Source: an uncultured bacterium
GTDB lineage: Bacteria > Hydrogenedentota > CAZGCA01
Length of the DNA stretch: 64,000 nucleotides
Assembly (NCBI GenBank): GCA_964524145.1
Contig: CAZGCA010000019.1
Span: forward strand, 4,133-68,132
Reading direction: 5' to 3'
In this document: one piece after another, positions 18,695 to 60,355 of the stretch
How positions within the stretch are numbered: the first letter of the stretch is position 1
Layout: the number at the start of each line of letters is the position of its first letter
Notes under the pieces: generated by a model
Databases searched by the model: none
What the model saw: only the letters and a program-made list of their open reading frames with translations
What the model was told of the DNA's origin: nothing
Translations under genes and position numbers: made by a program

Positions 18695-20734
18695 ATGCGC
18701 ATCATCAAATCAACCGTAGTCCTGCTGGTTCTAACACAAGTACTGTTCGCCGGATGCAAGACTGCTTCGTTCGAGGAGGCGGCACCGGCATCTAACATAA
18801 AGCTGCCCGCCCTGTTCACTGACAACATGGTTCTGCAGCGCGAGATGAAGATGCCGGTCTGGGGATGGGCGGACCCGGGCGGAAAGGTTGCCGTGTCCAT
18901 TGACACACTGGAGGCAGAGGCCATAGCAGGAGACGACGGCAGATGGATGGCAAGGCTCGGTCCTCTGCCGGCAGGCGGCCCTTACAACCTGACCGTCGCG
19001 GGCGAGGAGACCGTAAAACTCACAAACGTGATGGTCGGCGAAGTGTGGGTTTGTTCCGGACAGTCGAACATGCAGTGGCCGGCCCGTCTCGGCAGACGCA
19101 GCGCGGCCGACGCGGAACAGGAAATTGCCGCAGCCAAACACCCGAACATCCGCCTGTTCAGCGTTCCTATGGTAACGAGTTTCGTGCCGCGGGATGACTG
19201 CAAGAGCAAGGGGTGGGCGGTGTGCAACCCGGAGACGGTGCCGGAGTTCTCGGCAGTAGGATACTTCTTCGGCAGGTATCTTCACAAACAGCTCGATGTT
19301 CCCGTGGGCTTGATCCAGAGCGCGTGGGGCGGGACGGTCGCCGAGGCGTGGACGAGCGAGTCGGCCCTGAAAACGCTGCCCGATTTCAAACCCAAGCTCG
19401 CAAGGATGGCAGCGATACTCCCACGGCTTGACGAGATGGAGAGGGAGTACCGGAGGAAAGTGGCGGATTGGGAAGCGGCTCTCGACGGGCACGACGCCGG
19501 ATACTGGAACAACGAGCCCGTTTGGGCCGAGCCCGGATTCGATGCTTCGGGCTGGGAGTCTATGGACCTGCCGCAGGTCTGGGAGAACGCTGGGCTCGAG
19601 CGGTTCGACGGGTTTGTATGGTTCCGGAAAGAGGTCGAGATACCTGCGGCCGACGCGGGAAAACCCATGACCCTTCGCCTGGGACCCATAAACGATATGG
19701 ACCGGACGTGGTTCAACGGGACCAAGGTCGGAAGCCTTGAAATCCCGAACAGATGGAATACGCCTCGGGTGTATGATGTTTCAGGGGATCTCGTGAAACC
19801 CGGCCGGAACGTCATTACCGTCCGCGTATACGATACGGGCGGCAACGGCGGCGTCTGCGGAAATGCCGAGCAACTGAAGCTGGTGGTTGCCGGAGCGGAA
19901 GAAAGCGCGATTCCGTTGGCGGGTCCGTGGCTGTATAAGCCGGGGCTCGACATGAGAACCGTTCCCGGAAAGCCGCGACCACCCGCCATACGCATGAACA
20001 ACCCGAACGTTCCGACCGTACTGCACAACGCCATGATCAGTCCGCTCATCCCCTACGGCATTCGCGGGGCAATATGGTACCAGGGAGAGTCGAACGCCGG
20101 CCGCGCCTACCAGTACCGGACGCTCTTCCCCACCATGATTCAGGACTGGCGCGCGAACTGGGAGCAGGGCGATTTCCCGTTCCTGTTCGTTCAGTTGGCG
20201 AACTTTCAACAAGTCAAACCTGAACCAGGCGACGACGAGTGGGCCGAACTCCGGGAAGCCCAGTCGATGGCTCTCTCGCTGCCGAACACCGGTATGGCCG
20301 TGACTATCGATATCGGCGAAGCGAACGATATTCATCCAAGAAACAAGCAGGACGTCGGCAAACGTCTCGGCCTCGCGGCGCGCGCCATAGTGTTCGACGA
20401 GAAGATAGTGTATTCCGGCCCCATTTATGAGTCGATGCGCGTCGAGGGCAACGCCATCCGGCTGCGGTTCAACCATGTGGGCGGCGGACTCGTGGCGAAA
20501 GGCGAGCAACTAAAGGGCTTCGCGATCGCCGGGGACGACAGAAAGTTCGTCTGGGCCGACGCGAGGATCGAAGACGACACCGTCGTCGTCGAGAGCGACG
20601 AGGTCCGGAACCCCGTAGCCGTCAGGTACGCCTGGGCTATCAACCCCGTCTGCAACCTTTACAACAAGGACGGTCTGCCCGCATCGCCGTTCCGCACAGA
20701 CGACTGGCCGGGCATCACCAGAGGCAAGAAATAG
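18695..20734 (+). CDS. Sialate O-acetylesterase-family (SASA/DUF303, SGNH-like) lipoprotein
   Basis: Lipobox 'LFAGC'. 'GEVWVCSGQSNM' (SGNH Ser motif), 'GLIQSAWGGT' and a second SASA half 'GAIWYQGESN'. Confidence 0.8.
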   Translation: MRIIKSTVVLLVLTQVLFAGCKTASFEEAAPASNIKLPALFTDNMVLQREMKMPVWGWADPGGKVAVSIDTLEAEAIAGDDGRWMARLGPLPAGGPYNLTVAGEETVKLTNVMVGEVWVCSGQSNMQWPARLGRRSAADAEQEIAAAKHPNIRLFSVPMVTSFVPRDDCKSKGWAVCNPETVPEFSAVGYFFGRYLHKQLDVPVGLIQSAWGGTVAEAWTSESALKTLPDFKPKLARMAAILPRLDEMEREYRRKVADWEAALDGHDAGYWNNEPVWAEPGFDASGWESMDLPQVWENAGLERFDGFVWFRKEVEIPAADAGKPMTLRLGPINDMDRTWFNGTKVGSLEIPNRWNTPRVYDVSGDLVKPGRNVITVRVYDTGGNGGVCGNAEQLKLVVAGAEESAIPLAGPWLYKPGLDMRTVPGKPRPPAIRMNNPNVPTVLHNAMISPLIPYGIRGAIWYQGESNAGRAYQYRTLFPTMIQDWRANWEQGDFPFLFVQLANFQQVKPEPGDDEWAELREAQSMALSLPNTGMAVTIDIGEANDIHPRNKQDVGKRLGLAARAIVFDEKIVYSGPIYESMRVEGNAIRLRFNHVGGGLVAKGEQLKGFAIAGDDRKFVWADARIEDDTVVVESDEVRNPVAVRYAWAINPVCNLYNKDGLPASPFRTDDWPGITRGKK

Positions 20735-20960
20735 GCGCCAATCCGCCTGCTGACGCTGACGGGCGAGAGTGACGCGCCGGGCTCGGGCGGAGACTCTTCA
20801 GAAAGCGGCTTCTCGGCGTTCTGCAAATAATTGTAGTTGCATTGCTTACAGTCCGGGCCGAGAAACTATCAGACGCTGGCGGCGCTTGGTGTCTTCCGCA
20901 CGTGACCCCGCACGGCGGCGTGAGATACTCGTAATGATGGCGTCAAACCAGCACTTGAGC

Positions 20961-20989
20961 TTGACAAAGACCGGATGACAGGATATTAT
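20961..20989 (+). promoter_or_regulatory. Near-consensus sigma70 promoter TTGACA-17-TATTAT upstream of the FHA-GAF-HD-GYP gene
   Basis: TTGACA at 20961-20966, 17-nt spacer, TATTAT at 20984-20989. About 65 nt before ATG 21055, which has an AAGGAGAG RBS. Confidence 0.45.
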
Positions 20990-21054
20990 CAGTAGCGAGG
21001 AGCGGGTTATCTTGCGAGCCGACACAGTCGGCAGTTGGCCGAAGGAGAGTTGAG

Positions 21055-22731
21055 ATGGTCGAGTGCCACCTAAAGATTCTTGACGGACTGTTCCAGGGCC
21101 ACGAGTATCTGATCTCAGAGCGGGCAACGATTGGTCGCGGCTCGGACAATCACATCCAGCTCGCGGACGAGCTCGTGTCCAGACACCATGCAGAGATTCT
21201 GCCGGAAGGAGACGGTTTCGTACTCCGCGATACAGAGAGCGCGAACGGCACGTTTGTCAACGGCCAACGCATTCAGGAAGCCACACTTTCGCCCGGCGAT
21301 ACGGTGAAAATCGGCGAAACAACGCTCAAGTTTCAGGCCAAGACACCGTCTGAGCCGGCTACGGATGCCGACACCTCCTTCGTATCGATGGTTGGCGAGG
21401 AGTTGGTGTCTGAGACAGAGATGGTCGAGACGGAAGTACCCGTGTCGGAGTTTACGATACCGGTGCTGGACATCGAGCGGAAGCGTCTCGATATACTGTT
21501 GCAGATCTGCCAGGAGATCCCGGCCGAACGGAACTTTGACAAGCTTTTGGACACGATCCTGGGGAACGCCTTTGAGATCGTTCCGGCTCACCGCGGTGCG
21601 GTCCTGCTGAAGGACGAGGTGTCGGGCGAGCTTACGCCTTCCTGCACGCGTATCCGCGACAAAGAGAAGGCAGGCGAGATGGTGATCAGTTCGACCGTCG
21701 TCAACAGGATAGTCCGGGAAAAGGTTGGGATGATCATCGCCGATGCCGCGAGGGACAAGCAGATTCAGGACGCCTCCAGCATCAGGCTCGAGAGAATCCG
21801 CTCAGCGATGTGTGTTCCGATCATGTATCACGGCGAGGTGCTGGGGGCGATCTACGTCGATTCGACAGGCACCATCGAGCCGTTCCGGGAACGAGATCTC
21901 CAACTGCTGATCGCCATGGCGGGGCCTGCGGCCACAGCCATCAGCAACGCCCGGTATTTGAAGACGGTCGAAGAATACGCCCGGCGGCTCGAGCGGTCGC
22001 GCGACGAGACGCTGGCGGTCGTTGCGAACACGATAGAAGGGCGAGACCACTACACCGTCGGTCATACCTGGAGGGTGACAAAGTTCGCGATGGCCTTGGC
22101 GAGACATATGGGCTGGGACGAAGGGACGCTGAAGGAGGTTGAGGTAGGCGGTGTGCTGCACGATATCGGCAAGATAGCCGTCGACGACGCCATCCTGCGC
22201 AAACCGGCGCCGCTCGATGACGAAGAGTTTGCCCAGATGAAGATACATTGCAGCAAGGGCGCAAGCATGTTGAAAGACTGCCGCGAGCTCGAGAGCGCCA
22301 TCCCTTACGTTCTGTATCACCACGAGCGATACGACGGTCGGGGGTACCCGTTCGGGCTCGCCGGCGAGGAGATTCCCCGCGAGGGGCGGCTCCTGGCTAT
22401 TGCCGATTGCTTCGATGCGATGACAAGCAACAGGCCGTACCGGAAGGCGCTCCCCTCCGAGACGGCTATTGCCGAGATTGAAGAACGCCGGGGCGAACAG
22501 TTCGACCCCGGGTATGCCGAGGCCTTCGTCGAGATCTACAAGGCAGGAAAGATCAGTTCCATCATGCAGGATTATGCCAAAGGAGAGATGTCGACATGCT
22601 GCCCCTTCTGCAGCACGTTCATACGGATTGTCGAGCAAGACCTCGAAACCAAGATCGTCGTCTGCACTGTCTGCCACCATCAGGCAAAGTTGGAGAAGGT
22701 CGGCACGGAGTGGATGAGCGAGTTGGTGTAG
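21055..22731 (+). CDS. FHA-GAF-HD-GYP c-di-GMP phosphodiesterase with C-terminal Cys4 zinc ribbon
   Basis: FHA: 'ATIGRGSDNHIQLADELVSRHHAEI...ANGTFVNGQRI'. HD: 'LHDIGKIAV'. GYP: 'HHERYDGRGYPFGL'. C-terminal 'CCPFCST...CTVCHH'. Confidence 0.85.
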   Translation: MVECHLKILDGLFQGHEYLISERATIGRGSDNHIQLADELVSRHHAEILPEGDGFVLRDTESANGTFVNGQRIQEATLSPGDTVKIGETTLKFQAKTPSEPATDADTSFVSMVGEELVSETEMVETEVPVSEFTIPVLDIERKRLDILLQICQEIPAERNFDKLLDTILGNAFEIVPAHRGAVLLKDEVSGELTPSCTRIRDKEKAGEMVISSTVVNRIVREKVGMIIADAARDKQIQDASSIRLERIRSAMCVPIMYHGEVLGAIYVDSTGTIEPFRERDLQLLIAMAGPAATAISNARYLKTVEEYARRLERSRDETLAVVANTIEGRDHYTVGHTWRVTKFAMALARHMGWDEGTLKEVEVGGVLHDIGKIAVDDAILRKPAPLDDEEFAQMKIHCSKGASMLKDCRELESAIPYVLYHHERYDGRGYPFGLAGEEIPREGRLLAIADCFDAMTSNRPYRKALPSETAIAEIEERRGEQFDPGYAEAFVEIYKAGKISSIMQDYAKGEMSTCCPFCSTFIRIVEQDLETKIVVCTVCHHQAKLEKVGTEWMSELV

Positions 22732-22887
22732 GGCGGTTTCAGCAACAAGACACGGAGGAGTGAACGTAAGGTCACGGTACAGTCAATACGCGTAACGGTG
22801 CGCCGAACTCCTGAAAAGTGCGGGAACTGGTTTGTAGAACGGAGCTTTCGGCGCCATCAACCTGGCAGCATGGGGGCTGAGCGATAG

Positions 22888-22909
22888 TCGCAACCACGAA
22901 GGGTTGCGA
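22888..22909 (+). other. Small hairpin (8-bp stem, 6-nt loop) immediately 5' of the RBS of the giant gene
   Basis: TCGCAACC-acgaag-GGTTGCGA, followed by the GGGGAGG RBS and ATG 22923. Confidence 0.35.
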
Positions 22910-22922
22910 TGGGGAGGCTTTT

Positions 22923-25900
22923 ATGGCCGAAAGACAGAGATTGTTGGTTGTAATCGCCATCGTGCTGGTCGTTGCAGCGTCCGGGGTCGTGTTGCGCGTG
23001 GGGCGGCACGCAGGTGTCGAGCCGCGCCGAGCGCCTGCTGTGGTAACGGCTGGCAGGCTGGACGAGGATGCGCTGCAACAGACGTCGTGGTGGGCCGAGG
23101 CACAGGAGAACGTTCGGGAATCCGAGTACGCGGTCACGCGGCAGGAGAGGTCTGTCGTCGAAGGCAAGCCGGGCGGGCTTCATGCCGCGAACCGCGCGCA
23201 GAATCTTCGGGCCTACTTTCGGAGGGACGGCGTTGAAGTGGTCCCGCGAACGGGCGATTCCGCCGCGTGGGAATGGAGATGGAAGCTCTCAAGCTACGGA
23301 CGAAGCGACAACACTATCCCCGTTGGCGAGGTGGAGCCCACGCATGAGAGGGATCGGGTCGAGTACGACCGTCCGGGTATCACGGAATGGTACAAGAACA
23401 CGGAAGAAGGGATCGAACAGGGTTTCACCATCCCCGAACGCCTTCAAGGAGATGGCCGCCTTGTTATCGAAGGTATCGTCGGGGCAAGTCTGCATGCTGT
23501 ATCGCCCGATTCGGGCGACCGCGTCCGGTTTCTTGACGGGAACAACGTCGAAGTCCTTCGCTACAGCAGCTTGAAAGCCTTCGACGCGATCGGCAGAGAG
23601 CTGCCCGCCGTGATGCAGCTTGCCAGGAACACCGTTCAGCTCGTGGTCGATGACACCAATGCAATCTATCCGGTCACCGTTGACCCTATCATGACGAGCC
23701 CGCAGTGGATTGCGGGGAGCAACCAGTGGGACGCCAATTCCGGGTGGTCTGTTTCGGGTGCAGGTGATGTGAACGGCGACGGATACAGCGACATAATCGT
23801 CGGGGCGTATCAGTACGACAACGGCCAGGCAGACGAGGGGGCTGCATTCGTGTTTCTGGGCTCCGAGTCCGGAATCGTAGGAGGTCCCCCGGCCGACGCG
23901 GAGGCCGTGCTCGAGTCGAACCAGGCGAATGCGTATTTCGGCTATAGTGTGTCGTGCGCCGGTGACGTCAACGGTGACGGCTATTCCGATGTGATAGTAG
24001 GGGCTGCCGGCCAGGCATACGACATATATGATTTCTCGCCATCAATGACCTACAGTTATGGCGCGTACGACAATGGCGAGGCGAACGAAGGCGGGGCGTT
24101 TGTGTTTCTGGGCTCCCCGTCTGGGATCGTAGGGAGTTCCCCAGGCGATGCCGCCGCCGTGTTGGAATCGAACCAGCCGTACGCGTTTTTCGGCTGGAGC
24201 GTATCGGGCGCAGGTGACGTAAACGGTGACGGGTACGCCGACGTGATCGTCGGGGCGCACCGATACGACCAGGGCCAGACAGATGAAGGCGGGGCGTTCG
24301 TGTTTCTGGGGTCCGCGTCCGGCATAGTGGGGAGTTCTCCGGCCGATGCCGCAGCCGTGTTGGAATCGAACCAGGCGTATGCCTATCTCGGCTGGAGCGT
24401 ATCGTACGCAGGTGACGTAAACGGCGACGGGTACGCAGACGTAATCGTCGGGGCGTATCAGTACGATCACGCCCAGACGGACGAGGGTTCGGCCTTTGTG
24501 TTCCTCGGTTCGGTGTCCGGAATCGTCGGGACCAACCCCGGCAATGCAGCGACGGCGTTGGAGTCCGACAATGAGGCGGCGCAATTCGGATACAGCGTAT
24601 CGGGGGCGGGGGACGTGAACGGTGATGGATACGCTGATGTCATTGTAGGGTCGCCTTACGACGAATACAATCCCGTTGATCCCTATGAGGTGTTGATCGG
24701 ACGCGCGTTCGTGTATCTCGGCAACTCCTCGGGATTGGAAACGGGCCCCGTGTGGACGGCCCAGGGTGTCGACAAAGAGTGCTTTGCATGGGCCGTTTCC
24801 ACAGCCGGAGACATCAACGGAGACGGGTGTGCCGACGTTATCGTCGGCGCCCCTGTCCGGAACGCGTTCCACGGTCCGGAAGACCCCGTACCTGCGGGCC
24901 GTGTGCTGGCATATCTCGGGAACTCGAGCGGTGTCTCTGCTGATCCGGTTTGGAGCGTTGAGAGCGATACGGAAGAAGCCATGCTGGGTTATAGCGTATC
25001 GAGCGCGGGCGACGTCAACGGTGACGGGTACTCCGACATCATCGTCGGCGCCCCTCTCCACAGCATTACGAAATCGAATGAGGGCGGGGCGCTTGTGTTT
25101 CATGGTGGGTGTGAACCTCCTGCCGCGAGACCGGTATGGAGGATTGAGGATTTCGTGGCGTCCGACAACTACGGGGCAGCCGTTGCAGCATTGGGAGACA
25201 TAAACGGAGACGGCTATGACGATGTAACCGTCGGCGACCCCGCCTTCCCCAATTCCGACCCCTCCTCTGAAGGGGCCGGGCGAGTGTATGTGTACCTGGG
25301 AAACAACACAGGGTTGGAGAGCGGGCCGGTATGGAGTGCGCCGGGAGGCTCGTCGGGTTCTGCCGTCGGCGGGGCCGTTTCCGGTGCCGGCGACGTTGAC
25401 GGCGACGGCCACCCCGAACTCATCATTGGAGACCCCGGCTTTGACAATCGTGGCCGTGTCCTTGTCTACGGCTGGAACGGATCGGACCTCTCACCAGTGT
25501 GGAGCGCCGAAGGCGTTGAAGCTGAAGCAGAGTTCGGCGCGTCCGTCGCAGGAGTTGGAGATGTGGACGGGGACGGGTACGCAGATGTGCTGGTCGGCGC
25601 GCCGCTATACGACGACGGGTTGTCCGACCAAGGCCGTGTCTTTGCCTACTTTGGGAGCCCGACGGGCCTCAGCACCTCGGCCAAATGGGTTGCGAGTCCG
25701 GCCCAGGCGGGCGCACGGTTCGGTACCTCGGTTGCGGGAGCGGGCGACGTCAATGGTGACGGCTATGCGGATGTCATCATCGGGGCACCATTTTGTGACG
25801 GTGCATACCCCAATGTCGGGCGTGCGTGCGTGTACCTCGGGAGCGCAGCCGGCCTGCCGGACTCCCCGGCGTGGACTGTTGACGGAGAACAGGAGGACGC

Positions 25901-28900
25901 CCAGTTCGGTTCCCGGGTCACGGGTGTAGGCGACGTCAATGGCGACGGGTACGACGACGTGCTCGTGGCAGCGCCGCTCTATGACGGCATCTTCTTTGAC
26001 GGTGGCCGCATATTCCTGTATCTCGGTAACGCGTCGGGCATCTCAAGCACACCTGTGTCGGAACAAGACGGGGCCCAAGAGGATTCCCAGCTTGGCGCAT
26101 CCGTTGCCGGGGTGGGAGACGTGAGCGGAGACGCTCTGGCAGATGTGCTTGTCGGGGAACCCGGATATGAACTCCCGCCTGAGTACGAGGGGGGTCCAAT
26201 GCAGGTTAACGGGCGGACGGTTCTGTTTGAGGGTTCCCCAGAGGGGCTCTCGTCGGCACCAACCTGGACGTGCGAGGCTGGCGCGTATTACGACATGGGA
26301 CATGCGGTGTCGGGAGCCGGCGACATGAACGGGGATGGAGCTCTCGATATGCTGGTTGGGGTTTCCGGTGACAGCCCTCATCTGTTGAATGGGTACGTGA
26401 GGTATTTTATCGGAAACGGGGGCGACGGGCCTGAGCCTAAACCGGGAATAACGCAACAAAGCGGCGACCCGGTTGGCGCACCGGGCATAGTCGTCGACGA
26501 TGGGGGGATTCGGCTTGTCATGGCAGGAAAGGTGCCACTCGGGCGCGCGGCAGTAAGACTGGAATGGGAGATCGAGCCGTACGGTACAACCTTTGACGGG
26601 TTGGAAATACGGACGAGCGACCCATGGCACGATAGCGGCCTCTTAGGGTATCCGTTTGACAGGCTTATCACCGGATTGGGAGACGCTCACGGTTTCCGCG
26701 TTCGGATGCGCTTGCTTTACGCTCCGCTTGAAGTGCTGCAACCTGGAATCACTCCGCCGCCCAATCCTTCACACAGTCCGTGGTTCTATCCTTGCTGGGC
26801 GACAGTGGGCCCTTCCGATTTTCGGGCCTCCGGCTATCGGCCTCCGACGGACCCCGGCACGGTCGTCGTCACGCAGACTGCTCTGAGCACGGTGGACGAC
26901 ATCCAGTGCACAGTGGACGCATCAAGTACCTCACCAGCCGTGCCGCCGCAACCCGTTCAGTACGAGTTTCTCTGGTCGAACGGAGAGACCAGCGTCGTGC
27001 ATGTGTCCTCATCCTTGACAGACACACTCGACGCCTCTGAAACGAGGAAACATGAGACTTGGACCTGCACGGTGCGGGCATGGGACGGAGTCCAATACTC
27101 GCACGGTGCTTCGTCGGACACGGCTCCTCAAATCGACAACACGGCGCCGTCGCAGGCGACTCTTGACTGGGTGCGCGGTTCCGGTGCGGAACCCTACGAA
27201 TACGGGCCGCTCGATACAGTCCAAATCCAGATAACGGACTACTACGACGCCGACAACGACCTGCTGGTACCGGAGTTCACATGGGAGTACTACAGGGGCG
27301 GCACGTGGAACTCACCGGACTCGACAAACGTGTCGAGCACCACACTGTCGAGCTGGATAGAATCCGGTATTCCGCAGGAAGGCGATGTGTGGAAGTGTAC
27401 GGTGCGGATGTATGATGGTGAAGCCTGGAGCGGCTCGTCGAGTCTCGAGGCAACGATATTGGAGACGGGTGTTGACGAGTTGCTGATGACTATAGCGGTA
27501 ACGCCGCAGAGCGTCACGCTTGGCGAGGGGGTGACGATCACAGGCGGCGTGAGCCCGTCAGCGGACGTAGCGATATCGTTCAAGAGCAAGGAACTAGGTT
27601 CGAGTGGCTTTTCGCGGTCTTTTCCCCAAGGCGTGACCGCGTCCTCGGGCGCATTTAGCAAATTCTTCCTGCCGGACGCGGCGTCGGAAGGCCGATCCGA
27701 CTGGGAGGTGAGAGCGGAATTCAACGGAGACGCCTACTACCGCCCCGCAACGAGCAACGAAGCGTCTTTCGCCGTGGCCAAGGCCGAACCGGAGCTCGAG
27801 CTGGACTTGTCGCATGCCACGGCCTTGGTCAATCTAGGCAACGCAGAGAGTTTCGCTGCGACGGCGACCCTGTCGGTGGACGGCTTTCCCACGGAGCTCA
27901 AACCGTTGTTGTCGGGCAAGACAATCCGGCTGTCGGTGTCGGACCCGGATGGCCAGACGCCGTATGACCCCATCGAGAAGACGACAGACTCCGATGGCGA
28001 GGTGGTGTTAACCGCCCAGGACTTCAGGGACGCATGGGATCCCTCCGATACGGACGGCATCTTCATGGAGTCGGGGGTGTGGAAGTTCAAGGCGGAGTTT
28101 GCGGGCGACGACAACTTCACGCTTGCCTCGACGCCGGACTATGACGAAACCGACGCGCGTCTTATCGTCAAGGAAGGCGCGGGCTACGCGATACTCGTGC
28201 TGGGCCGTCTCGACCAGACCGCAGAAGGTCATGACGCGCACGCCAAGACCACCGACTACATCTACCGCACGCTGGTGGATCGGGCGTTCGACCCGAGCGA
28301 CATCTACTACATGCGCGAGTACCTGGGCGACGAAAAGGAGTCGTCGGATATCGAGGTTGACGACGAGTCGCCGACCAAGGCGGACGTGCAGTATGCAATA
28401 GAGACATGGGCCTACGACGCGATATTCGATTCGCCGGCGACGTTCTACATCATCTTTGCCGACCACGGCAGCGTGGACAAGTTCCACCTGTGGTCTTCGG
28501 AGAACACCGAAGACGATGACCAGTACCTCACGCCCAATGAGCTTGACGGCTATGTTGATCTGCTCGAAACGCAACTTGGAACCGACCCGGAGATAGTGTT
28601 CATCTACGGTGCATGCCACTCGGGGAGTTGCATTCCGACCCTCTCCGCATCGAACCGGGTGCTTATCACGAGCTGCGCTGAGGACGAGATCTCGTACCGT
28701 GGGGTGGACAGCGATCCGACGGACGGTTCGGACGTGCGGGACGGCGAGTTTTTCCTGATGGAGCTGTTCCGTAACGCGGGCGCGGGCAGGTCGTTCGAGG
28801 AGTCGTTCGAGCTTGCCTCGGCCAAGACGGTCGAGTACACGGCGTCGAAGAGCAACGGGGCGTTGGCCGATGAGCCGCAGCACCCGCTGCTCGACGACGA

Positions 28901-31643
28901 TGGAAACGGTGTGGGCACGCCGGGCGCGTCGCTGGGCGCGGTGGGCGCGGACGGCAGCCGTGCATCGAGCATGATCCTGGGGTTGGGCTCGAACGCGGGC
29001 AACACGGTGAGCTGGTTCACGGTGAGCGCGCCGGTATCGATAGATCCCGGCGAAGACATTCCCAGCCCATTGTTCGCGGAGACGACGGGCCGCGCGCTGA
29101 CCGCAGAGGACACGGCGTGGATAGAGGTGAAGACACCGACGTACGACAGTGGCGAGCTGGCCGACTCGGAGTATTCGGAGTTCCAGAAGCAGGCGGAGAT
29201 GGCGGGCCCGATCGCTCCGGGCAGCTCGGAGTCTGTCGGTGAGGAGAAAGTGCGGTTCGAGTGGGCCCAGACCGATCTGGACCCGTACCTGAGCTTCGAC
29301 ACCTCAGGCACGTACAAGGTGTACTACTTCCTGAGAGACGGGACAACAGGCCAGGTGAGTTCGTACCTGGTGACGAACATCTACGTCTCGCTGGCGGACA
29401 ACCAGCCGCCGCAGGCGGTGACGCTGGCGTACCCGGGCGAAGGGGCAGTGTTGAAGAGCACGATATTCTTTGTCTGGGGAGAGAGCAGCGACCCGGAGGG
29501 CGACGCGATAACGTACCGGCTCGAGGTGGCTGAGGACAGCGGGTTCACGACCGGTCTGATAGTCAAGGACGGTATTGCCGGCACGGTGACGCAACTCACC
29601 GCTGCGGACGGCATCGAGGATCTCACGGGCTACTACTGGCGCGTGATCCCGGTGGACACGTACGGAGCGAGCCCGGCGACCAATACGGTTCGCGCGTTCA
29701 GTGTAAACAAGGCCAATCCGGACCTGCAAGGCCTGATAACGGGTACGGTGAAGGATTCGGCGACGGGCGATGCCATTGCAGGTGCGAGCATCACGCTGAC
29801 GCCGGGCTCCCATCCCCTCACGACCTCGACGACGCAGGGAGTGTACTATTTCGCGAACCTCTCGCCGGGACTGTACACGGTAGACGCCTCGGCTTCGGGC
29901 TATTACGATGAGAGTGACGCTGCGAACGTGCCGACGGGCGGTCATGCCGAGGTGAATTTCGAGCTGGCCCTCGAGAGCAACCCGCCAGCGTGTGCTACGA
30001 TACCCGACGTGAGCTTCGATGAAGACGGCACCGACACGAGCATTGATCTCGACGACTATGTGTCCGATGCGGACAACACGGATGCGGAGCTGAGTTGGAC
30101 GTACTCGGGCGCGACGAACGTGACGGTATCGATCCGCTCGACGACCCATATAGTGACGCTCGGTGCCGCGGCGAACTGGTACGGCACCGAGACGATAACG
30201 TTCACCTGTACCGATACCGGCGGATTGTCGGACAGCACCGACGTGGTCGTAACAGTAGACTCCGTCAACGACGATCCGTGGATAGATCCTGCACTACCGA
30301 ATCTGGCTGTGGAGGCGGATGTGGGTCTGCCATACGATCTGACGCAGCACGAACACGATATCGAGGACAGCGACACCGGGCTCATCTGGTCAATCAACGG
30401 TGTCAGCACATCGTTGTTCGATGCCACAATCGATGAGGCCACCGACGAGCTGACCGTCACGCCTGTACCCGGCGCGGAGGGCAGCGATTCCGTGCAGCTT
30501 GTGGTGCAGGATAGCGAGGGTGCCGCGGCGTCGCAGTGGCTCACGGTAACGGTGGCGCAGGACACGGACGACGACGGTATGCCCGACACCTGGGAACGTG
30601 AGCACGGACTGGACACGGGGAGCAACGACGCGTCACAAGACGCCGACGGCGACGGGCTGACCAACCTCGAGGAATACGGTGCCGGCACCGATCCGCAGGA
30701 GGCTGACAGCGACGACGACGGGTACACCGACAAGGAGGAAGTCGATCATGGCACCGATCCCAACGACGAGACGGATACGCCCGCACCCCGGCTGGCGAAC
30801 GTCACGATCGAGCCGCAGGATCCGCACGTGTACACGAGCATACCGGTAACGTTCACGGTCACGGGCGAGATGGACGATGGGGCCACGGCCGATTTGAGCG
30901 CCGCGACGGTGACCTGGGCTGTGGTGTCGGGCGTTGGTGATATCGACCCGGATACAGGCATCTTCGAGAGCGATACGGAGGGCGCAGCAGAAATCTCGGT
31001 TACGGTAGAGTTGGATGGCGTGACGCGGAGCGACACGGTATCGTTCGAGGTCGAGAGCAAATCCGTCCTGACAGTCGGGTCGGATGACATTCAAGGGGAC
31101 GAGCCCGTCTCCATTGCAGTGACGCTGACCTCTGGTGCCATCGATGTTGCCGAGATAGAGTTTACGCTGGTGATAGACTCGCAGGTGGTCGAGGTTGTGA
31201 GCATTGTCGCAGGCGCGCAGGCGGACACTGGCGGCAAGACCGTAGAAGTCTCGCAGGTGGACGCCAACCATCACGATGTCGCTGTTGGTGGAAACAGTGC
31301 AGTGCTGGCCGACGGCGAGATCGTGGTGATCATGCTGGGAGCGGCCGCGAGCGGCGAAATCGGTCACTGCTCTTCGATCGAGCTGCAGGACACGGCGTGC
31401 TACGATCCCGCTGGCGGCGCAGTCCCTGCCGTTGGCATTGGCGGTCGGTGCTGCCTGACGGTGGCATACCTCGCGTGCGACGTCGACGGCAACGGATTCG
31501 TCAACGCTCTGGACGTCCAACTCGTCATCAACGCCGCGCTGGGCGAAGACGTCTCTTGGGACTGCGATGTCGACGGTAACGGGTTCGTCAACGCCCTGGA
31601 CGTCCAACTCGTCATCAACGCCGCGCTGGGGATCGATACGTAG
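22923..31643 (+). CDS. Giant (2906 aa) secreted multi-domain surface protein: 14 FG-GAP repeats, Ig-like domains, clan-CD caspase-fold peptidase domain, CarboxypepD_reg-like/FN3/cadherin-like domains, TSP3-like Ca-binding repeats, cohesin-like domain, C-terminal dockerin
   Basis: Signal/anchor 'LLVVIAIVLVVAASGVVL'. 14 copies of 'FGYSVSGAGDVNGDGYADVIVGA' (FG-GAP). Legumain-like dyad 'IIFADHGS' and 'VFIYGACHSGSC'. 'VNDDP' Ig-like module. 'DTDDDGMPD...DADGDGLTN...DSDDDGYTD'. C-terminal duplicated 'CDVDGNGFVNALDVQLVINAALG' (dockerin type-I-like). Confidence 0.85.
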   Translation: MAERQRLLVVIAIVLVVAASGVVLRVGRHAGVEPRRAPAVVTAGRLDEDALQQTSWWAEAQENVRESEYAVTRQERSVVEGKPGGLHAANRAQNLRAYFRRDGVEVVPRTGDSAAWEWRWKLSSYGRSDNTIPVGEVEPTHERDRVEYDRPGITEWYKNTEEGIEQGFTIPERLQGDGRLVIEGIVGASLHAVSPDSGDRVRFLDGNNVEVLRYSSLKAFDAIGRELPAVMQLARNTVQLVVDDTNAIYPVTVDPIMTSPQWIAGSNQWDANSGWSVSGAGDVNGDGYSDIIVGAYQYDNGQADEGAAFVFLGSESGIVGGPPADAEAVLESNQANAYFGYSVSCAGDVNGDGYSDVIVGAAGQAYDIYDFSPSMTYSYGAYDNGEANEGGAFVFLGSPSGIVGSSPGDAAAVLESNQPYAFFGWSVSGAGDVNGDGYADVIVGAHRYDQGQTDEGGAFVFLGSASGIVGSSPADAAAVLESNQAYAYLGWSVSYAGDVNGDGYADVIVGAYQYDHAQTDEGSAFVFLGSVSGIVGTNPGNAATALESDNEAAQFGYSVSGAGDVNGDGYADVIVGSPYDEYNPVDPYEVLIGRAFVYLGNSSGLETGPVWTAQGVDKECFAWAVSTAGDINGDGCADVIVGAPVRNAFHGPEDPVPAGRVLAYLGNSSGVSADPVWSVESDTEEAMLGYSVSSAGDVNGDGYSDIIVGAPLHSITKSNEGGALVFHGGCEPPAARPVWRIEDFVASDNYGAAVAALGDINGDGYDDVTVGDPAFPNSDPSSEGAGRVYVYLGNNTGLESGPVWSAPGGSSGSAVGGAVSGAGDVDGDGHPELIIGDPGFDNRGRVLVYGWNGSDLSPVWSAEGVEAEAEFGASVAGVGDVDGDGYADVLVGAPLYDDGLSDQGRVFAYFGSPTGLSTSAKWVASPAQAGARFGTSVAGAGDVNGDGYADVIIGAPFCDGAYPNVGRACVYLGSAAGLPDSPAWTVDGEQEDAQFGSRVTGVGDVNGDGYDDVLVAAPLYDGIFFDGGRIFLYLGNASGISSTPVSEQDGAQEDSQLGASVAGVGDVSGDALADVLVGEPGYELPPEYEGGPMQVNGRTVLFEGSPEGLSSAPTWTCEAGAYYDMGHAVSGAGDMNGDGALDMLVGVSGDSPHLLNGYVRYFIGNGGDGPEPKPGITQQSGDPVGAPGIVVDDGGIRLVMAGKVPLGRAAVRLEWEIEPYGTTFDGLEIRTSDPWHDSGLLGYPFDRLITGLGDAHGFRVRMRLLYAPLEVLQPGITPPPNPSHSPWFYPCWATVGPSDFRASGYRPPTDPGTVVVTQTALSTVDDIQCTVDASSTSPAVPPQPVQYEFLWSNGETSVVHVSSSLTDTLDASETRKHETWTCTVRAWDGVQYSHGASSDTAPQIDNTAPSQATLDWVRGSGAEPYEYGPLDTVQIQITDYYDADNDLLVPEFTWEYYRGGTWNSPDSTNVSSTTLSSWIESGIPQEGDVWKCTVRMYDGEAWSGSSSLEATILETGVDELLMTIAVTPQSVTLGEGVTITGGVSPSADVAISFKSKELGSSGFSRSFPQGVTASSGAFSKFFLPDAASEGRSDWEVRAEFNGDAYYRPATSNEASFAVAKAEPELELDLSHATALVNLGNAESFAATATLSVDGFPTELKPLLSGKTIRLSVSDPDGQTPYDPIEKTTDSDGEVVLTAQDFRDAWDPSDTDGIFMESGVWKFKAEFAGDDNFTLASTPDYDETDARLIVKEGAGYAILVLGRLDQTAEGHDAHAKTTDYIYRTLVDRAFDPSDIYYMREYLGDEKESSDIEVDDESPTKADVQYAIETWAYDAIFDSPATFYIIFADHGSVDKFHLWSSENTEDDDQYLTPNELDGYVDLLETQLGTDPEIVFIYGACHSGSCIPTLSASNRVLITSCAEDEISYRGVDSDPTDGSDVRDGEFFLMELFRNAGAGRSFEESFELASAKTVEYTASKSNGALADEPQHPLLDDDGNGVGTPGASLGAVGADGSRASSMILGLGSNAGNTVSWFTVSAPVSIDPGEDIPSPLFAETTGRALTAEDTAWIEVKTPTYDSGELADSEYSEFQKQAEMAGPIAPGSSESVGEEKVRFEWAQTDLDPYLSFDTSGTYKVYYFLRDGTTGQVSSYLVTNIYVSLADNQPPQAVTLAYPGEGAVLKSTIFFVWGESSDPEGDAITYRLEVAEDSGFTTGLIVKDGIAGTVTQLTAADGIEDLTGYYWRVIPVDTYGASPATNTVRAFSVNKANPDLQGLITGTVKDSATGDAIAGASITLTPGSHPLTTSTTQGVYYFANLSPGLYTVDASASGYYDESDAANVPTGGHAEVNFELALESNPPACATIPDVSFDEDGTDTSIDLDDYVSDADNTDAELSWTYSGATNVTVSIRSTTHIVTLGAAANWYGTETITFTCTDTGGLSDSTDVVVTVDSVNDDPWIDPALPNLAVEADVGLPYDLTQHEHDIEDSDTGLIWSINGVSTSLFDATIDEATDELTVTPVPGAEGSDSVQLVVQDSEGAAASQWLTVTVAQDTDDDGMPDTWEREHGLDTGSNDASQDADGDGLTNLEEYGAGTDPQEADSDDDGYTDKEEVDHGTDPNDETDTPAPRLANVTIEPQDPHVYTSIPVTFTVTGEMDDGATADLSAATVTWAVVSGVGDIDPDTGIFESDTEGAAEISVTVELDGVTRSDTVSFEVESKSVLTVGSDDIQGDEPVSIAVTLTSGAIDVAEIEFTLVIDSQVVEVVSIVAGAQADTGGKTVEVSQVDANHHDVAVGGNSAVLADGEIVVIMLGAAASGEIGHCSSIELQDTACYDPAGGAVPAVGIGGRCCLTVAYLACDVDGNGFVNALDVQLVINAALGEDVSWDCDVDGNGFVNALDVQLVINAALGIDT

Positions 31644-31898
31644 TGTGATACCGGATCCGGATACGGGCCCGGTGAGTTGTTCTTTCTGTTCCGGGGTTTC
31701 TTGGTAGCCGCCTTGACCGGCTTGTTTGCCATCCCTCTGCGCGCTCACCCGGAGTCGTGTGAGTTTCCTGAGTTTTCCCGCTGTTGTGTGTTGTGGTATC
31801 CTATAGCGTCTAATAACGGGTACAGTTTCCGGTCATCGCTGTTCAGGTGAGCAAGTAAAGGAAACGCGCACGCGCCGCGCAGGAGGATGTCCGCGAAA

Positions 31899-32858
31899 AT
31901 GCGGGTTCTTGTCACCGGAGGCGAAAGCTTCCTGGGCGAACACGTTGTCAAGCGCCTTCGAGAGGAACACGATCTCGCGACGTGTCCCCGCGGCATGACG
32001 GGCGAGCCGGACAAGCTGGCCGCAGCGGCAGAGGGCCGGGACGTTATCGTCCATCTGGACATATTGTTGCGCGCATGGGTGCCGGACCCGGAACAGTATC
32101 GCCGGGTCAACATCGAGGGGTTGAGAAACGTTGTCGACAGCGCGAGACGAGCCGGCGTGGGACGGGTGGTGTACGTCTCAACGTTTCTGGCATTAGGGCC
32201 GACATCCTGGAAGCCGGCGGCGGAGTTGCCCGAGACCAGGGAGACGTTTCTGGGCGAGTGCGATGCGTCGCTCTGGGAAGCGCTACGGTTGATCGACGAG
32301 ACTGAGGACCCTTGTGTTGTCACGCTCATCCCGACGATGGTCTACGGACCCGGCAAGTTGGGCGTGGAGAACCATCTGGGCAGGCTCATGTGGCGGGCGA
32401 TGCGCGGCAGGGTTCGGACGATTATCGGCACCGGGTATCAAATGTGGAACTTCGTGTATGTCGAGGACGTTGCAGAGGCGTGCGCGGCAGCGCTAAGGAA
32501 AGGGAGTTGTGGCGCGAAGTACGTGATAGGCGGCGAGAATGTCCGACTGAGCGAGTTCTTTAATCTGCTCGGGAAGCTCGCCATGAGTCTGCCGCCGGAA
32601 CGGACGGTTCCGGTACGGGCAACGCTTAAGGTGGCCCGGTTTCACATGTTTCTGGCGAAGCTGTTCAGGTTCGAGCCGCTGATTGTGCCGGCTTTGCTGA
32701 AGGTGTATGATCATAATTGGGCGTTCGATTCGACGAGGGCCGAGAAGGAACTTGGCGTCAAGGGAAGGCCCCTGCTGGATGGTCTGGTTCCGACCGTGAG
32801 ATACTACGAGCAAACAAAGCGTGCCAACCGCATCGGGAAGAAGAGACGACAAGGGTGA
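31899..32858 (+). CDS. NAD-dependent epimerase/dehydratase (extended SDR) family protein
   Basis: 'MRVLVTGGESFLG' Rossmann motif. Second ATG chosen because it sits 12 nt after the AGGAGG RBS. Confidence 0.7.
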   Translation: MRVLVTGGESFLGEHVVKRLREEHDLATCPRGMTGEPDKLAAAAEGRDVIVHLDILLRAWVPDPEQYRRVNIEGLRNVVDSARRAGVGRVVYVSTFLALGPTSWKPAAELPETRETFLGECDASLWEALRLIDETEDPCVVTLIPTMVYGPGKLGVENHLGRLMWRAMRGRVRTIIGTGYQMWNFVYVEDVAEACAAALRKGSCGAKYVIGGENVRLSEFFNLLGKLAMSLPPERTVPVRATLKVARFHMFLAKLFRFEPLIVPALLKVYDHNWAFDSTRAEKELGVKGRPLLDGLVPTVRYYEQTKRANRIGKKRRQG

Positions 32859-32909
32859 ACCGTTCGGCAAGCGATTCGCCGGACATCGAGAAGACGTGAG
32901 GTTGAAAAC

Positions 32910-33797
32910 ATGTTAACCGACAACATTCTGGATCTTATCGGCAACACACCGCTTGTCCAGCTCAAAGGCGAGCGAGTGTTTGCCAAGGCGGAGTTTCTCA
33001 ACCCGGGGGGCAGCATCAAGGACCGTGTTGCGCTGGGGATGCTCGAGGGTGCGGCCCGGGACGGCAAGCTCTCGGCGGACTCGATCATCACCGAGCCGAC
33101 CTCCGGCAACACGGGCATCGGCGTGGCACTCGTCGGGCTGCTCAAAGGGTACCGTGTGCGGATCGTCATGCCCGAAGGAATGAGCGAGGAACGCAAGAAA
33201 CTGATCCGCGCTCTCGGCGCGGAGCTTGTTCTCACGCCCGACCGAGACGGTATCGCGGGTGCGGTGCGCAGAGTTGAAGAGATGGCCGCAGCCGATCCGC
33301 ACATCTACGTGCCCCAGCAGTTCGAGAACCCGGACAACCCGCGGGTCCATTACGAGGAGACGGCACACGAACTCTGGCGGCAGATGTCCGGCGAGATAGC
33401 GTGCTTTGTGGCGGGCGTCGGCAGCGGCGGGACGCTGCAGGGTGTCGGGAAGTTTCTTAAGGAACGCAGGACGGACGTGCGTATCGTTGCCGTCGAACCC
33501 AAGAACGTGTCGGCACTGCTCGGCCACGAACCCGGCCTCCACCAGATACAGGGGATAGGCGACGGATTCGTCCCTTCTGTGCTCGACGTCTCGCTGATAG
33601 ACGAGGTTATCGAAGTCACGGACGAGGACGCCATCGAGACCACCCGACAGCTCGGCCGCGAGTGCGGGCTGCTGGTCGGCATCTCGTCCGGCGCAAACGT
33701 CTGGGCGGCTCGACAGTTGGCGGACCGAATCGACGGGAATGTTGCGACGGTGTTGCCCGACCGCGCCGAACGATACTTCAGTACAGCGTTGCTCTGA
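32910..33797 (+). CDS. cysK: Cysteine synthase (O-acetylserine sulfhydrylase)
   Basis: 'GNTPLV', PLP-lysine 'PGGSIKDR', 'TSGNTGIG' and 'GIGDGFVP'. 295 aa. Confidence 0.9.
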   Translation: MLTDNILDLIGNTPLVQLKGERVFAKAEFLNPGGSIKDRVALGMLEGAARDGKLSADSIITEPTSGNTGIGVALVGLLKGYRVRIVMPEGMSEERKKLIRALGAELVLTPDRDGIAGAVRRVEEMAAADPHIYVPQQFENPDNPRVHYEETAHELWRQMSGEIACFVAGVGSGGTLQGVGKFLKERRTDVRIVAVEPKNVSALLGHEPGLHQIQGIGDGFVPSVLDVSLIDEVIEVTDEDAIETTRQLGRECGLLVGISSGANVWAARQLADRIDGNVATVLPDRAERYFSTALL

Positions 33798-34089
33798 CGC
33801 CCGTCAGCCGTGACACACATCTCCTGGCCGCTGCGCGAGTGTGATTTCTCCGTGGCGCTCGTCACTGTGGGCCATTATTCACCCGGCACCCGGTGAGATG
33901 TGGGGGCTGCGGTCTCGATGTCGGGGGTGAGGGCATGAACCGCGGCTGCTTGAAGGTACCGACATGGTACAGCGTGTCCTCCGGCAGTGGAATATTCGCG
34001 CCTGTTCTGGACGTTTTGATTACGACCACCACGGCTCGACGAATGATAATCGATTGCCGCAGAAAATGCGGAGTAAGAATTGCAGGAAC

Positions 34090-34118
34090 TTGACAAATCT
34101 GCGCCTGCCTGCTATGAT
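34090..34118 (+). promoter_or_regulatory. Near-consensus sigma70 promoter TTGACA-17-TATGAT driving the second giant gene
   Basis: TTGACA at 34090-34095, 17-nt spacer, TATGAT at 34113-34118. Implies a 5'-UTR of about 170 nt before ATG 34293. Confidence 0.5.
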
Positions 34119-34292
34119 CTTATATAAGAGGGAAGTTCGACCATTGTAAGTGTTGAACGTGGGAGCCATCTAATGAGGCCATCGGCATCCCCGCCGTTGA
34201 CTGCGGCAGGGACGGACAGCCGCCATGACCCTACGCTTCAAGAACCCTTGGCGAAGAGTGCGTCGTGACGGCTATAGAGGGAGGATTCTACC

Positions 34293-43632: not shown

Positions 43633-44655
43633 GTGAAGCGTTGGACACTCATCGGTGTGGTCGTTCTCGCGCTGGTCGTGTGGATCTGGTTCATGCTTCG
43701 TCCATCGCGGTCCGGACTGTTGTCCCAACCGGTAGTTGGCGAGGCAGCTTCTGCTCGTTCCGGTGTGCTGCGGCGAGACCCGCCACCTGAACGTCTATCT
43801 GCGGGACCTGCGGGAGCAACGGCGCAGAACAACTGTTCCATCTCGGGCAGAGTGTTGGACATGAGCGTATCCTACGCTCGCCCGACTCTCCTGCGGCGTT
43901 TGGGCTTGGGCAGGCTGAAATCTGAGCGTAACGAGCCCCTGACGGGTGTAAGAATACTTCAAAGACAGGGGAGGGAAGGACCGGTAGTTCGGAAAACCTT
44001 TACCGACGGGGACGGCCGGTATACATTCCAGGGACTCTCTGCAGGCGACTATACTATCGAGGCCGAGCCGCCGGCAGACGCCCTGAACTTCACATATCGG
44101 CCGCATACTGTCAGACTGCAACCGGGCGAGCACAAGGAAGATGTTGACTTCCACTTCAGGCTTGACAGCGTGGTAATGGCGGGACAAGTCACCGATACTC
44201 GCGGATATCCTATCGAAGGGGTTACAGTCGTTGCCGATCCCGTGATAGGGGAGTCTTATGCCGATGCGCGCAAGCCGGTCAGTGTGTTGACCGACGAGGA
44301 CGGCCGCTACCGGATCGAAGGGATTGTACCTACGCGCATGACAAGAGTGGCCTCGTACATCACGAAGGGCAGGAAACCGAAGCTGGCAACGTACGCCTTA
44401 CGTGCACGTGCTCACGGGTACACCGCAGTCGAAGTGATCGTTCCCTCGATTACCGATAGCCTTCTCAGGGAGGCTCAATCGCTTGGCTACGTTGACCCTC
44501 GTAGCTCTGCTGTGGCACCGTTACCAACAAGCTACGGGAACGTTATCAATATCGACTTTGTTCTTGAGAGAGAGGCGGCGGTTGTGGACAGGAACACGGA
44601 CGAACACGGACGGACACAAACGAAGGATGAACCATGGCGGCTGATGAGTCCTTGA
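43633..44655 (+). CDS. Secreted protein with two carboxypeptidase-regulatory-like (CarboxypepD_reg) beta-sandwich domains
   Basis: GTG start after GAAGGGGAG. N-terminal TM/signal sequence. 'DGDGRYTFQGLSAGDYTIEAEPP' and 'DEDGRYRIEGIVPT'. The 3' end contains CACGGAC repeats. Confidence 0.6.
   Translation: MKRWTLIGVVVLALVVWIWFMLRPSRSGLLSQPVVGEAASARSGVLRRDPPPERLSAGPAGATAQNNCSISGRVLDMSVSYARPTLLRRLGLGRLKSERNEPLTGVRILQRQGREGPVVRKTFTDGDGRYTFQGLSAGDYTIEAEPPADALNFTYRPHTVRLQPGEHKEDVDFHFRLDSVVMAGQVTDTRGYPIEGVTVVADPVIGESYADARKPVSVLTDEDGRYRIEGIVPTRMTRVASYITKGRKPKLATYALRARAHGYTAVEVIVPSITDSLLREAQSLGYVDPRSSAVAPLPTSYGNVINIDFVLEREAAVVDRNTDEHGRTQTKDEPWRLMSP
44590..44611. repeat. 22-bp direct repeat copy 1 (AGGAACACGGACGAACACGGAC)
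   Basis: Identical 22-mer recurs at 45038-45059. Built from GAACACGGAC decamers. Confidence 0.6.

Positions 44656-59292: not shown

Positions 59293-59300
<8 letters not shown>
58419..59300 (-). CDS. DUF58 protein (MoxR-associated, VWA-like)
   Basis: 'GLSVEFADYRDYVYGDDPRFVDWNVFGRLDRLFLKLF...ILVDTSGSM'. Confidence 0.8.
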
Positions 59301-60300
<1,000 letters not shown>

Positions 60301-60355
60301 TTCGTTTCTCCTCAACTCTGTCGGCTACGTGATACGAACGAAGAGGTTCCTTCGT

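Follow-up and report, generated by a model that had tools for sequence, protein, structure and literature searches.

We analyzed a 64,000-nucleotide stretch of contig CAZGCA010000019.1 (hereafter the window), which comes from an uncultured bacterium of the Hydrogenedentota lineage, and found that it encodes a 2906-residue modular protein carrying a legumain-like cysteine peptidase domain (family C13, clan CD) in the middle of its chain. By its predicted structure the domain is a true C13-type clan-CD fold whose catalytic dyad is intact and under selection, and by its aligned residues it is not a typical legumain, as its S1 pocket is altered. We tentatively favor the interpretation that this giant, exported, calcium-binding protein is a surface-docked, calcium-dependent endopeptidase of the legumain type. 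To our knowledge, nearly all that is known about family C13 comes from eukaryotic legumains, plant peptide ligases and glycosylphosphatidylinositol (GPI) transamidase, and its bacterial members, which are present in databases, are essentially unstudied.

A motif scan located ADHG at residue 1846 and GACHSG at residue 1896, and the two candidate catalytic residues lie in the contexts FYIIFADHG (H1848) and IVFIYGACHSGS (C1898), each of which closes a hydrophobic strand. The Pfam model Peptidase_C13 (PF01650), whose cutoff is 22.8 bits, reached 23.4 bits with the whole protein as query and 28.7 bits with the isolated segment, in a partial match that covers profile positions 112-234 of 258; Pfam was scored twice throughout, on the whole 2906-residue protein and on isolated segments, on which weak matches rise. 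Since the evidence for a peptidase from sequence alone was marginal, we built a family alignment. A phmmer search of the peptidase segment alone against PDB sequences returned no match, so that a family profile was needed, and this profile retrieved solely legumains and GPI transamidase from the PDB at E ≤ 0.01, with the cysteine aligned to IEACESGS.

The structure of the peptidase domain was predicted from a 31-sequence alignment of the domain alone; an AlphaFold2 model of residues 1720-2215 based on a 4-sequence alignment (mean predicted local distance difference test score, pLDDT, 43.6) proved unusable and was discarded. Residues 1745-2003 show the caspase-hemoglobinase alpha/beta/alpha fold. 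In a Foldseek search with the predicted domain, plant asparaginyl ligases and legumains ranked first (E 1.7e-10), and the fold-comparison figures were 23.1 for OaAEP1, 23.0 for human legumain and 20.7 for the GPI transamidase PIGK, compared to 15-19 for metacaspases and caspases, about 13 for gingipains and 10-12 for clostripain-type C11 enzymes. An earlier note on this DNA had called the domain a caspase-fold, legumain-like peptidase with a His/Cys dyad and had suggested a structural check; structure prediction and fold search strongly support this call. An hhalign alignment with human legumain (an approximate sequence, in which the numbers of Asn42, Arg44 and His45 come from a manual count and the other legumain residue numbers from the alignment) placed H1848 on H148 and C1898 on C189.

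The dyad is conserved across the family, with the histidine kept in 141, the following glycine in 142 and the cysteine of the G-x-C-x-SGS motif in 137 of 144 extracted modules. Asn42, Arg44, His45, Ser216 and Asp231 have been named as pocket or catalytic residues of legumain (PMC4357240), and the equivalents of His45, Ser216 and Asp231 (the last as Glu) are present in 135-136 of the 144 relatives. The remainder of the S1 pocket set is lost, the position of Arg44 being Ala here and Ser, Glu or Ala across the family, and that of Asn42 being His here and mostly Leu elsewhere; because neither residue is kept, a strict preference for Asn is not to be expected. The domain is probably catalytically active.

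Compared to legumain, asparaginyl endopeptidases, the related ligases and PIGK/GPI8 (MEROPS C13, clan CD), with which sequence identity is only 15-18%, the domain lies mid-chain in a 2906-residue bacterial protein rather than in a lysosomal or vacuolar zymogen of about 430 residues, and domains without a Pfam match follow where legumain has its helical legumain stabilization and activity modulation (LSAM) prodomain. No LSAM-type prodomain was detected by Pfam downstream of the peptidase, and in the low-confidence model (pLDDT 43.6) this region is mostly beta. A near-invariant Q-H-P-L-L-D-D-N-G-D-G motif ends the peptidase domain in the family (QHPLLDDDGNG here, positions 28875-28931, residues ~1985-2003); it resembles a calcium-binding DxDxDG loop and could bear on calcium-dependent activation. 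The gingipains RgpB and Kgp (C25, clan CD) and the C25 enzymes of Candidatus Stygibacter are likewise secreted bacterial clan-CD cysteine peptidases in which Ig-like and adhesin-type domains follow the peptidase and a C-terminal module serves surface attachment.

The peptidase belongs to a conserved unit of about 830 residues that, as delimited by sequence comparison, consists of Ig-like domains, the peptidase, an unknown domain (termed 'post'), an FN3-like domain and CarboxypepD_reg. An exhaustive HMMER scan of cluster representatives with a 4-sequence profile of residues 1720-2215 retrieved 2974 representatives at E ≤ 1e-3, 627 of them at E ≤ 1e-30, and revealed the true size of a family for which a word-indexed homolog search had yielded no more than 4 peptidase fragments and a single fragment of the cohesin-like module. 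Among the best 150 of the 2974, nearly all carry the match inside a much longer protein, and most exceed 1000 residues, with the longest reaching 6464. When 153 retrieved relatives were searched with each segment of the 2906-residue protein, an Ig-like domain directly preceded the peptidase in 62, and the 'post', FN3-like and CarboxypepD_reg domains were present in 105, 131 and 56, respectively. The modules ahead of the cassette vary and include FG-GAP repeats, right-handed beta-helix/NosD/Disaggr_assoc domains, an NHL propeller (in a gammaproteobacterial metagenome-assembled genome, MAG) and a Sortilin/BNR propeller (in a Geobacter MAG).

The earlier note had considered the domain combination unusual. 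This holds for the addition of a cohesin-like module, found in one ortholog cluster only (P0006/P0156), whereas FG-GAP repeats with the cassette recur in 12 of the 153 relatives and a C-terminal dockerin in 11. The ortholog P0156 has the order FG-GAP, mid region, Ig, peptidase, 'post', FN3-like, CarboxypepD_reg, TSP3, Big, cohesin and dockerin, and further relatives from independent assemblies have the order N-terminal domain, FG-GAP, Ig and peptidase. The nearest named relatives are proteins of Candidatus Hydrogenedentota MAGs annotated as hypothetical or as Ig-like or FG-GAP-like repeat proteins, and distant cassette-bearing genes occur in MAGs of Nitrospirae, Geobacter, Gammaproteobacteria, Myxococcota and Thermodesulfobacteriota. 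NCBIfam has no model for the peptidase, and a literature search retrieved nothing specific on bacterial C13 giants, on Hydrogenedentes with FG-GAP or dockerin proteins or on such extracellular peptidases. We conclude that the protein is not categorically new, being a member of a large, existing and unstudied family whose domain types are all known, and that it is a distinct variant by virtue of its altered S1 pocket, the giant modular exoproteins in which the cassette resides, the swapped heads and, here, the cohesin-dockerin pair.

Two observations touch on the cassette family. At locus L007 (7415-16930) of a gammaproteobacterial MAG, a protein with an NHL propeller, a C13-like domain, CarboxypepD_reg and TSP3 is followed by a 1256-residue FecR/TPR/TonB-dependent-receptor-like beta-barrel protein, a neighbor that may hint at an outer-membrane partner. 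The window also encodes a separate 340-residue protein with two CarboxypepD_reg domains (43633-44655, plus strand), the same domain type as that at the end of the cassette.

Ahead of the cassette lie the 14 FG-GAP repeats that the earlier note had counted. A motif scan found 14 D-[VIM]-[NDS]-G-D-[GA] motifs between residues 282 and 1134, spaced 56-84 residues apart, the Pfam FG-GAP model scored 286 bits over 13 stretches of the whole protein, and a search of the region against PDB sequences matched the propellers of integrin alpha-4, -5 and -V (residues 812-1089, E down to 4e-22). Repeats 1-7 and 8-14 would form two 7-bladed propellers. The repeats share the DxNGDG calcium-binding loops of integrin alpha and of bacterial FG-GAP/VCBS proteins; compared to integrin alpha, there are fourteen tandem repeats, which imply two propellers, the thigh and calf domains and a beta-subunit partner are absent, and all 14 repeats bear the calcium motif, which integrin alpha propellers have in only 3-4 blades. 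Tandem 198-bp (66-residue) copies that are 73-87% identical occupy positions 24087-24634, about FG-GAP repeats 3-5, and indicate, on the DNA alignment, that blades of the first propeller were duplicated fairly recently; the blades of the second propeller have no such DNA repeat.

Parts without a Pfam match make up about one-third of the chain (residues 1-264, 1181-1515 and 2004-2268). Among the 153 relatives, phmmer detected the domain of residues 25-264 in five, always preceding FG-GAP repeats, and two segments of the mid region (mid1 and mid2) are conserved in 10-30.

The C-terminal part of the protein carries calcium-binding and docking modules. The TSP3-like repeats described earlier stand, since TSP3_bac scored 38.6 bits on the segment and 24.8 bits on the whole protein, and the cadherin-like repeats before them gave a partial match to the NCBIfam model tand_rpt_95 (34 bits, cutoff 90). 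The dockerin call is likewise sound: Dockerin_1 (PF00404) scored 34.3 bits on the whole protein and 35.9 bits on the segment against a cutoff of 22.9, both segments appeared in the motif scan, and the PDB matches included the dockerins 2ccl_B and 4uyq_B. The cohesin call is weak, because the Pfam model exceeded its cutoff of 24.1 on the isolated segment (25.2 bits, E 2e-5) and fell below it on the whole protein (20.9 bits); only the former is statistically significant. No cohesin was detected at E ≤ 1e-3 in the ortholog P0156, a 3-sequence profile of the region had two Clostridium cellulolyticum cohesins as its best PDB matches at a non-significant E of 0.15, and a metagenome scan for cohesin-like relatives gave no confirmed locus.

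Cellulosomal scaffoldins and adaptors such as CipA and ScaB contain cohesin(s) plus a dockerin. The giant protein likewise places a cohesin-like module beside a two-segment calcium-binding dockerin in one chain, and its two identical dockerin segments recall type I dockerins with a dual binding mode. Compared to the scaffoldins, it has a single, weakly scoring cohesin on a protease and propeller carrier instead of a scaffold bearing carbohydrate-binding modules. Glycoside hydrolases were not seen as partners, the DNA does not come from a cellulolytic Firmicute, and binding between cohesin and dockerin is a prediction here. A second dockerin-tailed exoprotein gene lies 2.6 kb downstream of the giant gene. 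Its product has a cleavable-looking signal peptide ending in AFA|D, a right-handed beta-helix region (Beta_helix, 100 bits), a long array of TSP3-type DxDxDG repeats that match TSP3_bac, and a dockerin of the same DVQLVINAAL type as in the giant protein (Dockerin_1, 22.0 bits, just below the cutoff of 22.9). A promoter-like site precedes this gene (34090-34118, 11/12 matches, extended -10 TG).

The giant protein has a 2936-residue paralog, P0154, on another contig of the metagenome, Ga0309839_1001685 (locus L011; 58% GC compared to 59% in the window); this paralog has a beta-helix N-terminus instead of propellers. The two proteins are 86-94% identical over residues 1708-2457, which comprise the cassette and the first cadherin-like repeat, and 20-50% identical elsewhere, with 64% in the dockerin. 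At the DNA level, window positions 27828-30271 are 85% identical to 11990-14433 of L011, within the P0154 gene, and positions 28074-29798 are 74% identical to 3224-4975 of L011, a second cassette in a neighboring 2652-residue gene; a third neighbor there is an RHS/YD-shell giant with a dockerin. Thus, the organism or a close population has several giant dockerin-tailed proteins, at least three of them with a C13-like cassette. Judging from these alignments, the cassette is either exchanged among paralogs or strongly constrained, and the mosaic identity points to an exchange of cassettes, or to gene conversion, between paralogs whose N-terminal heads differ.

The features of the giant gene and of two nearby genes are as follows.

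Table 1. Features of the giant exoprotein gene and of two nearby genes, in window coordinates
Feature	Position	Strand	Details
FHA-GAF-HD-GYP protein, 558 aa	21055..22731	+	FHA 74.5, GAF 54.2, HD_5 (PF13487) 123.4 bits
Giant exoprotein gene, complete	22923..31643	+	single open frame, 2906 codons
Hydrophobic N-terminal segment, aa 7-24, LLVVIAIVLVVAASGVVL	22941..22994	+	read from the translation
N-terminal domain, aa 25-264	22995..23714	+	no Pfam match at E ≤ 0.1
FG-GAP repeats 1-7, aa ~265-735	23715..25127	+	motifs at aa 282, 348, 432, 498, 564, 630, 697; Pfam
FG-GAP repeats 8-14, aa ~736-1180	25128..26462	+	motifs at aa 759, 824, 880, 942, 1004, 1066, 1134
Mid region without annotation, aa 1181-1515	26463..27467	+	no Pfam match; two ~100-aa repeats ending W.CTVR..DG
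Ig-like domains, cassette start, aa 1516-1744	27468..28154	+	Big_3_5 E 7e-5, weak CARDB match
Legumain-like (family C13, clan CD) cysteine peptidase domain, aa 1745-2003	28155..28931	+	
His1848 codon	28464-28466	+	
Cys1898 codon	28614-28616	+	
'Post' domain, aa 2004-2160, and FN3-like domain, aa 2161-2268	28932..29726	+	no Pfam match
CarboxypepD_reg (transthyretin-like), cassette end, aa 2269-2352	29727..29978	+	Pfam 53-57 bits, cutoff 32.3
Two cadherin-like repeats, Big_9/tandem-95 type, aa 2355-2550	29985..30572	+	Big_9 33.4 bits (segment)
Bacterial TSP3 calcium-binding repeats, aa 2551-2622	30573..30788	+	TSP3_bac 38.6 bits (segment), two stretches
Cohesin-like module, aa 2716-2827	31068..31403	+	Pfam Cohesin (PF00963)
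Type-I-like dockerin, aa 2853-2900	31479..31622	+	two identical 22-residue segments DVDGNGFVNALDVQLVINAALG, 7 residues apart
Second dockerin-tailed exoprotein, 1627 aa	34293..39176	+	signal peptide, beta-helix, TSP3 array, dockerin

The giant open reading frame of the earlier note is real, in that it is uninterrupted, is preceded by a GGAGG ribosome-binding site (22913-22917, 5 nt from the ATG) and begins with a hydrophobic N-terminus, in which two Arg residues are followed by an 18-residue hydrophobic stretch that can be read either as a signal peptide or as a signal anchor. The identical 2906-residue protein is also recorded on a 73.7-kb contig of the Joint Genome Institute (JGI), 3300028837 Ga0309839_1001174.

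The interpretation as a surface-docked endopeptidase would work as follows. The N-terminal hydrophobic segment would carry the chain across the cytoplasmic membrane, and the two FG-GAP propellers would act as calcium-dependent heads that bind a ligand or substrate. The unit of Ig, peptidase, beta-sandwich and CarboxypepD_reg domains would then cut bound polypeptides, with His1848 as the general base and Cys1898 as the nucleophile, and the C-terminal dockerin, possibly with the adjacent cohesin-like module, would hold the protein at the cell surface by non-covalent docking, either to sister molecules or to a partner that bears a cohesin, as one of the organism's set of dockerin-tagged giant exoproteins. 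The endopeptidase step is based on the profile matches to legumain and GPI transamidase and on the conservation of dyad and pocket, which points to selection on catalysis; targeting by binding heads is based on the occurrence of the same cassette after FG-GAP, beta-helix/NosD, NHL and Sortilin/BNR modules in relatives; and docking is based on the dockerin score above cutoff, the second dockerin protein downstream and the dockerin-tailed giants on the other contig. The analysis establishes which domains are present, the peptidase fold, the dyad with its conservation and the makeup of family and cassette; export, catalytic activity, action in trans on foreign substrates, calcium dependence and docking through cohesin and dockerin are predictions. 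The assembly into a proteolytic surface complex that the earlier note had envisaged is a reasonable inference, and it parallels Candidatus Stygibacter, for which a cellulosome-like complex of dockerin-tagged clan-CD (C25) and S8 serine peptidases with a cohesin scaffoldin has been proposed (PMC8542988).

Several points weigh against this interpretation. The computed data are compatible with action in trans and with action on the protein's own chain alike, and a literature search gave no biochemical data on any member of the bacterial cassette family. The window contains no separate cohesin-bearing anchor, and the sole cohesin-like module is in the same chain, with a marginal hidden Markov model score. 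The two propellers and the calcium binding are deduced from motifs, and the N-terminus has no obvious signal-peptidase site, which could leave the protein tethered to the inner membrane.

The main rival, which we regard as less probable and still a serious contender, is that the C13-like domain works in cis, as a built-in protease for the maturation of the giant chain to which it belongs. By cutting this chain it would free or activate the variable N-terminal module, or detach the protein from its anchor. In every case the protease sits inside the chain between the same flanking domains, regardless of the N-terminal payload, the cassette is far more similar between the two paralogous giants than their other parts, as fits housekeeping of the chain, and clan CD includes self-processing domains (PMC4357240). 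The clan-CD cysteine protease domains of MARTX and of the large clostridial toxins process their own chains in this way, and gingipain polyproteins are somewhat similar.

A related and rather improbable alternative takes the cassette as an uncharacterized, widespread bacterial unit, a relative of legumain and GPI transamidase that acts on its own carrier by cleavage or transpeptidation, freeing or covalently fixing interchangeable N-terminal binding heads; in the protein described here, the cohesin-dockerin pair would polymerize the processed units head-to-tail into a surface fiber. We consider it slightly less plausible again that the protein is an adhesin or structural surface fiber in which the C13-like domain is a non-catalytic, binding pseudo-peptidase, as the His, Gly and Cys residues are retained in 95-98% of the 144 diverse relatives, together with several pocket residues.

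An unlikely variant of the enzymatic readings is that the domain is a transpeptidase or ligase, not a hydrolase, and would attach its own or a partner chain covalently to a surface acceptor, on the model of GPI transamidase and the plant asparaginyl ligases of family C13. The top structural matches do include the peptide asparaginyl ligases OaAEP1 and VyPAL2 and the GPI transamidase PIGK, but resemblance in structure does not discriminate between ligases and hydrolases, Arg44, the residue that recognizes Asn, is not conserved, an acceptor or sorting motif was not seen in the protein, and the C-terminal dockerin already provides a non-covalent anchor. Finally, the concern of the earlier note that the gene might be a mis-assembly of repeats was rejected: a chimera of repeat-rich metagenomic reads is suggested by the origin of the 8.7-kb frame in one metagenome contig, by its internal repeats and by the 2.4-kb stretch that is 85% identical to a gene on another contig of the sample and could mislead an assembler, but it is very improbable given that the frame is unbroken across 8.7 kb, that the internal DNA repeat copies are only 73-87% identical, that the ortholog P0156 on a separate JGI contig has the matching order from FG-GAP through cohesin and dockerin, and that relatives running from FG-GAP to the cassette occur in independent NCBI and ENA assemblies.

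Directly upstream of the giant gene, the FHA-GAF-HD-GYP gene of the earlier note is real and has a promoter-like site. Its product has the HD_5 domain with the motifs HDIGK and HHERYDGRGYP and is a predicted HD-GYP c-di-GMP phosphodiesterase. The promoter-like site, a TTGACA-17-TATTAT element at 20961-20989 that agrees with the sigma-70 type at 11/12 positions, ends 66 nt ahead of the start codon. The public JGI gene call for this protein is 350 residues long and lacks the FHA domain, and the C-terminus ends in a Cys-rich, zinc-ribbon-like CCPFC...CTVCHH tail. The 191-nt spacer before the giant gene contains no promoter-like match and only a weak hairpin (22809-22825), so that co-transcription of the two genes is possible.

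The proposal that this neighbor places the giant protein under second-messenger control found no support. There is no HD-GYP neighbor at the related loci L011, L012 and L013, and no Rfam family, hence no riboswitch for cyclic diguanylate (c-di-GMP), was found in 20500-34400. In a c-di-GMP-controlled surface-protein system of the Lap-like kind, conserved linkage or a c-di-GMP sensing element tied to the gene would be expected, and neither was found in these searches. We therefore rejected c-di-GMP control as a supported claim, adjacency in one genome being its sole evidence.

Apart from these genes, the window consists of ordinary chromosomal DNA, with obg, proB, proA-like, nadD-like and glycerol kinase genes, a type II secretion/type IV pilus ATPase, Bat/MoxR/VWA genes, and genes for a sialate-esterase-like protein, an epimerase and a pyridoxal phosphate-dependent enzyme; the nearest named matches of its Obg are from Hydrogenedentes, at about 52% identity. 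Three loci on the minus strand deserve mention. A 779-residue frame (5479-7821) is an unusual fusion of an Nramp metal transporter (residues 41-409) and an ApbE flavin-transferase (residues 481-760), an 845-residue frame (1231-3771) has multihaem cytochrome c7-like motifs and, at its C-terminus, a membrane domain of the cytochrome b561 type (Ni_hydr_CYTB), and genes for BatA/VWA, a MoxR-type AAA ATPase and large VWA/GATase1-like proteins (56578-63238) resemble a Bat aerotolerance-like operon.

The bacterial C13-like enzyme in the window is a clean case, in which the dyad is intact, the S1 pocket differs and the predicted structure is well supported. The family to which it belongs runs to thousands of sequence clusters, and giant exoproteins from uncultured phyla account for many of these. 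The swapping of the cassette among paralogs with different heads represents a natural experiment on modular targeting. If active, these domains may make up a major, unrecognized group of proteases that act outside the cell, or of self-processing modules, in sediments and digesters, and they may offer new clan-CD specificities or scaffolds for ligases.

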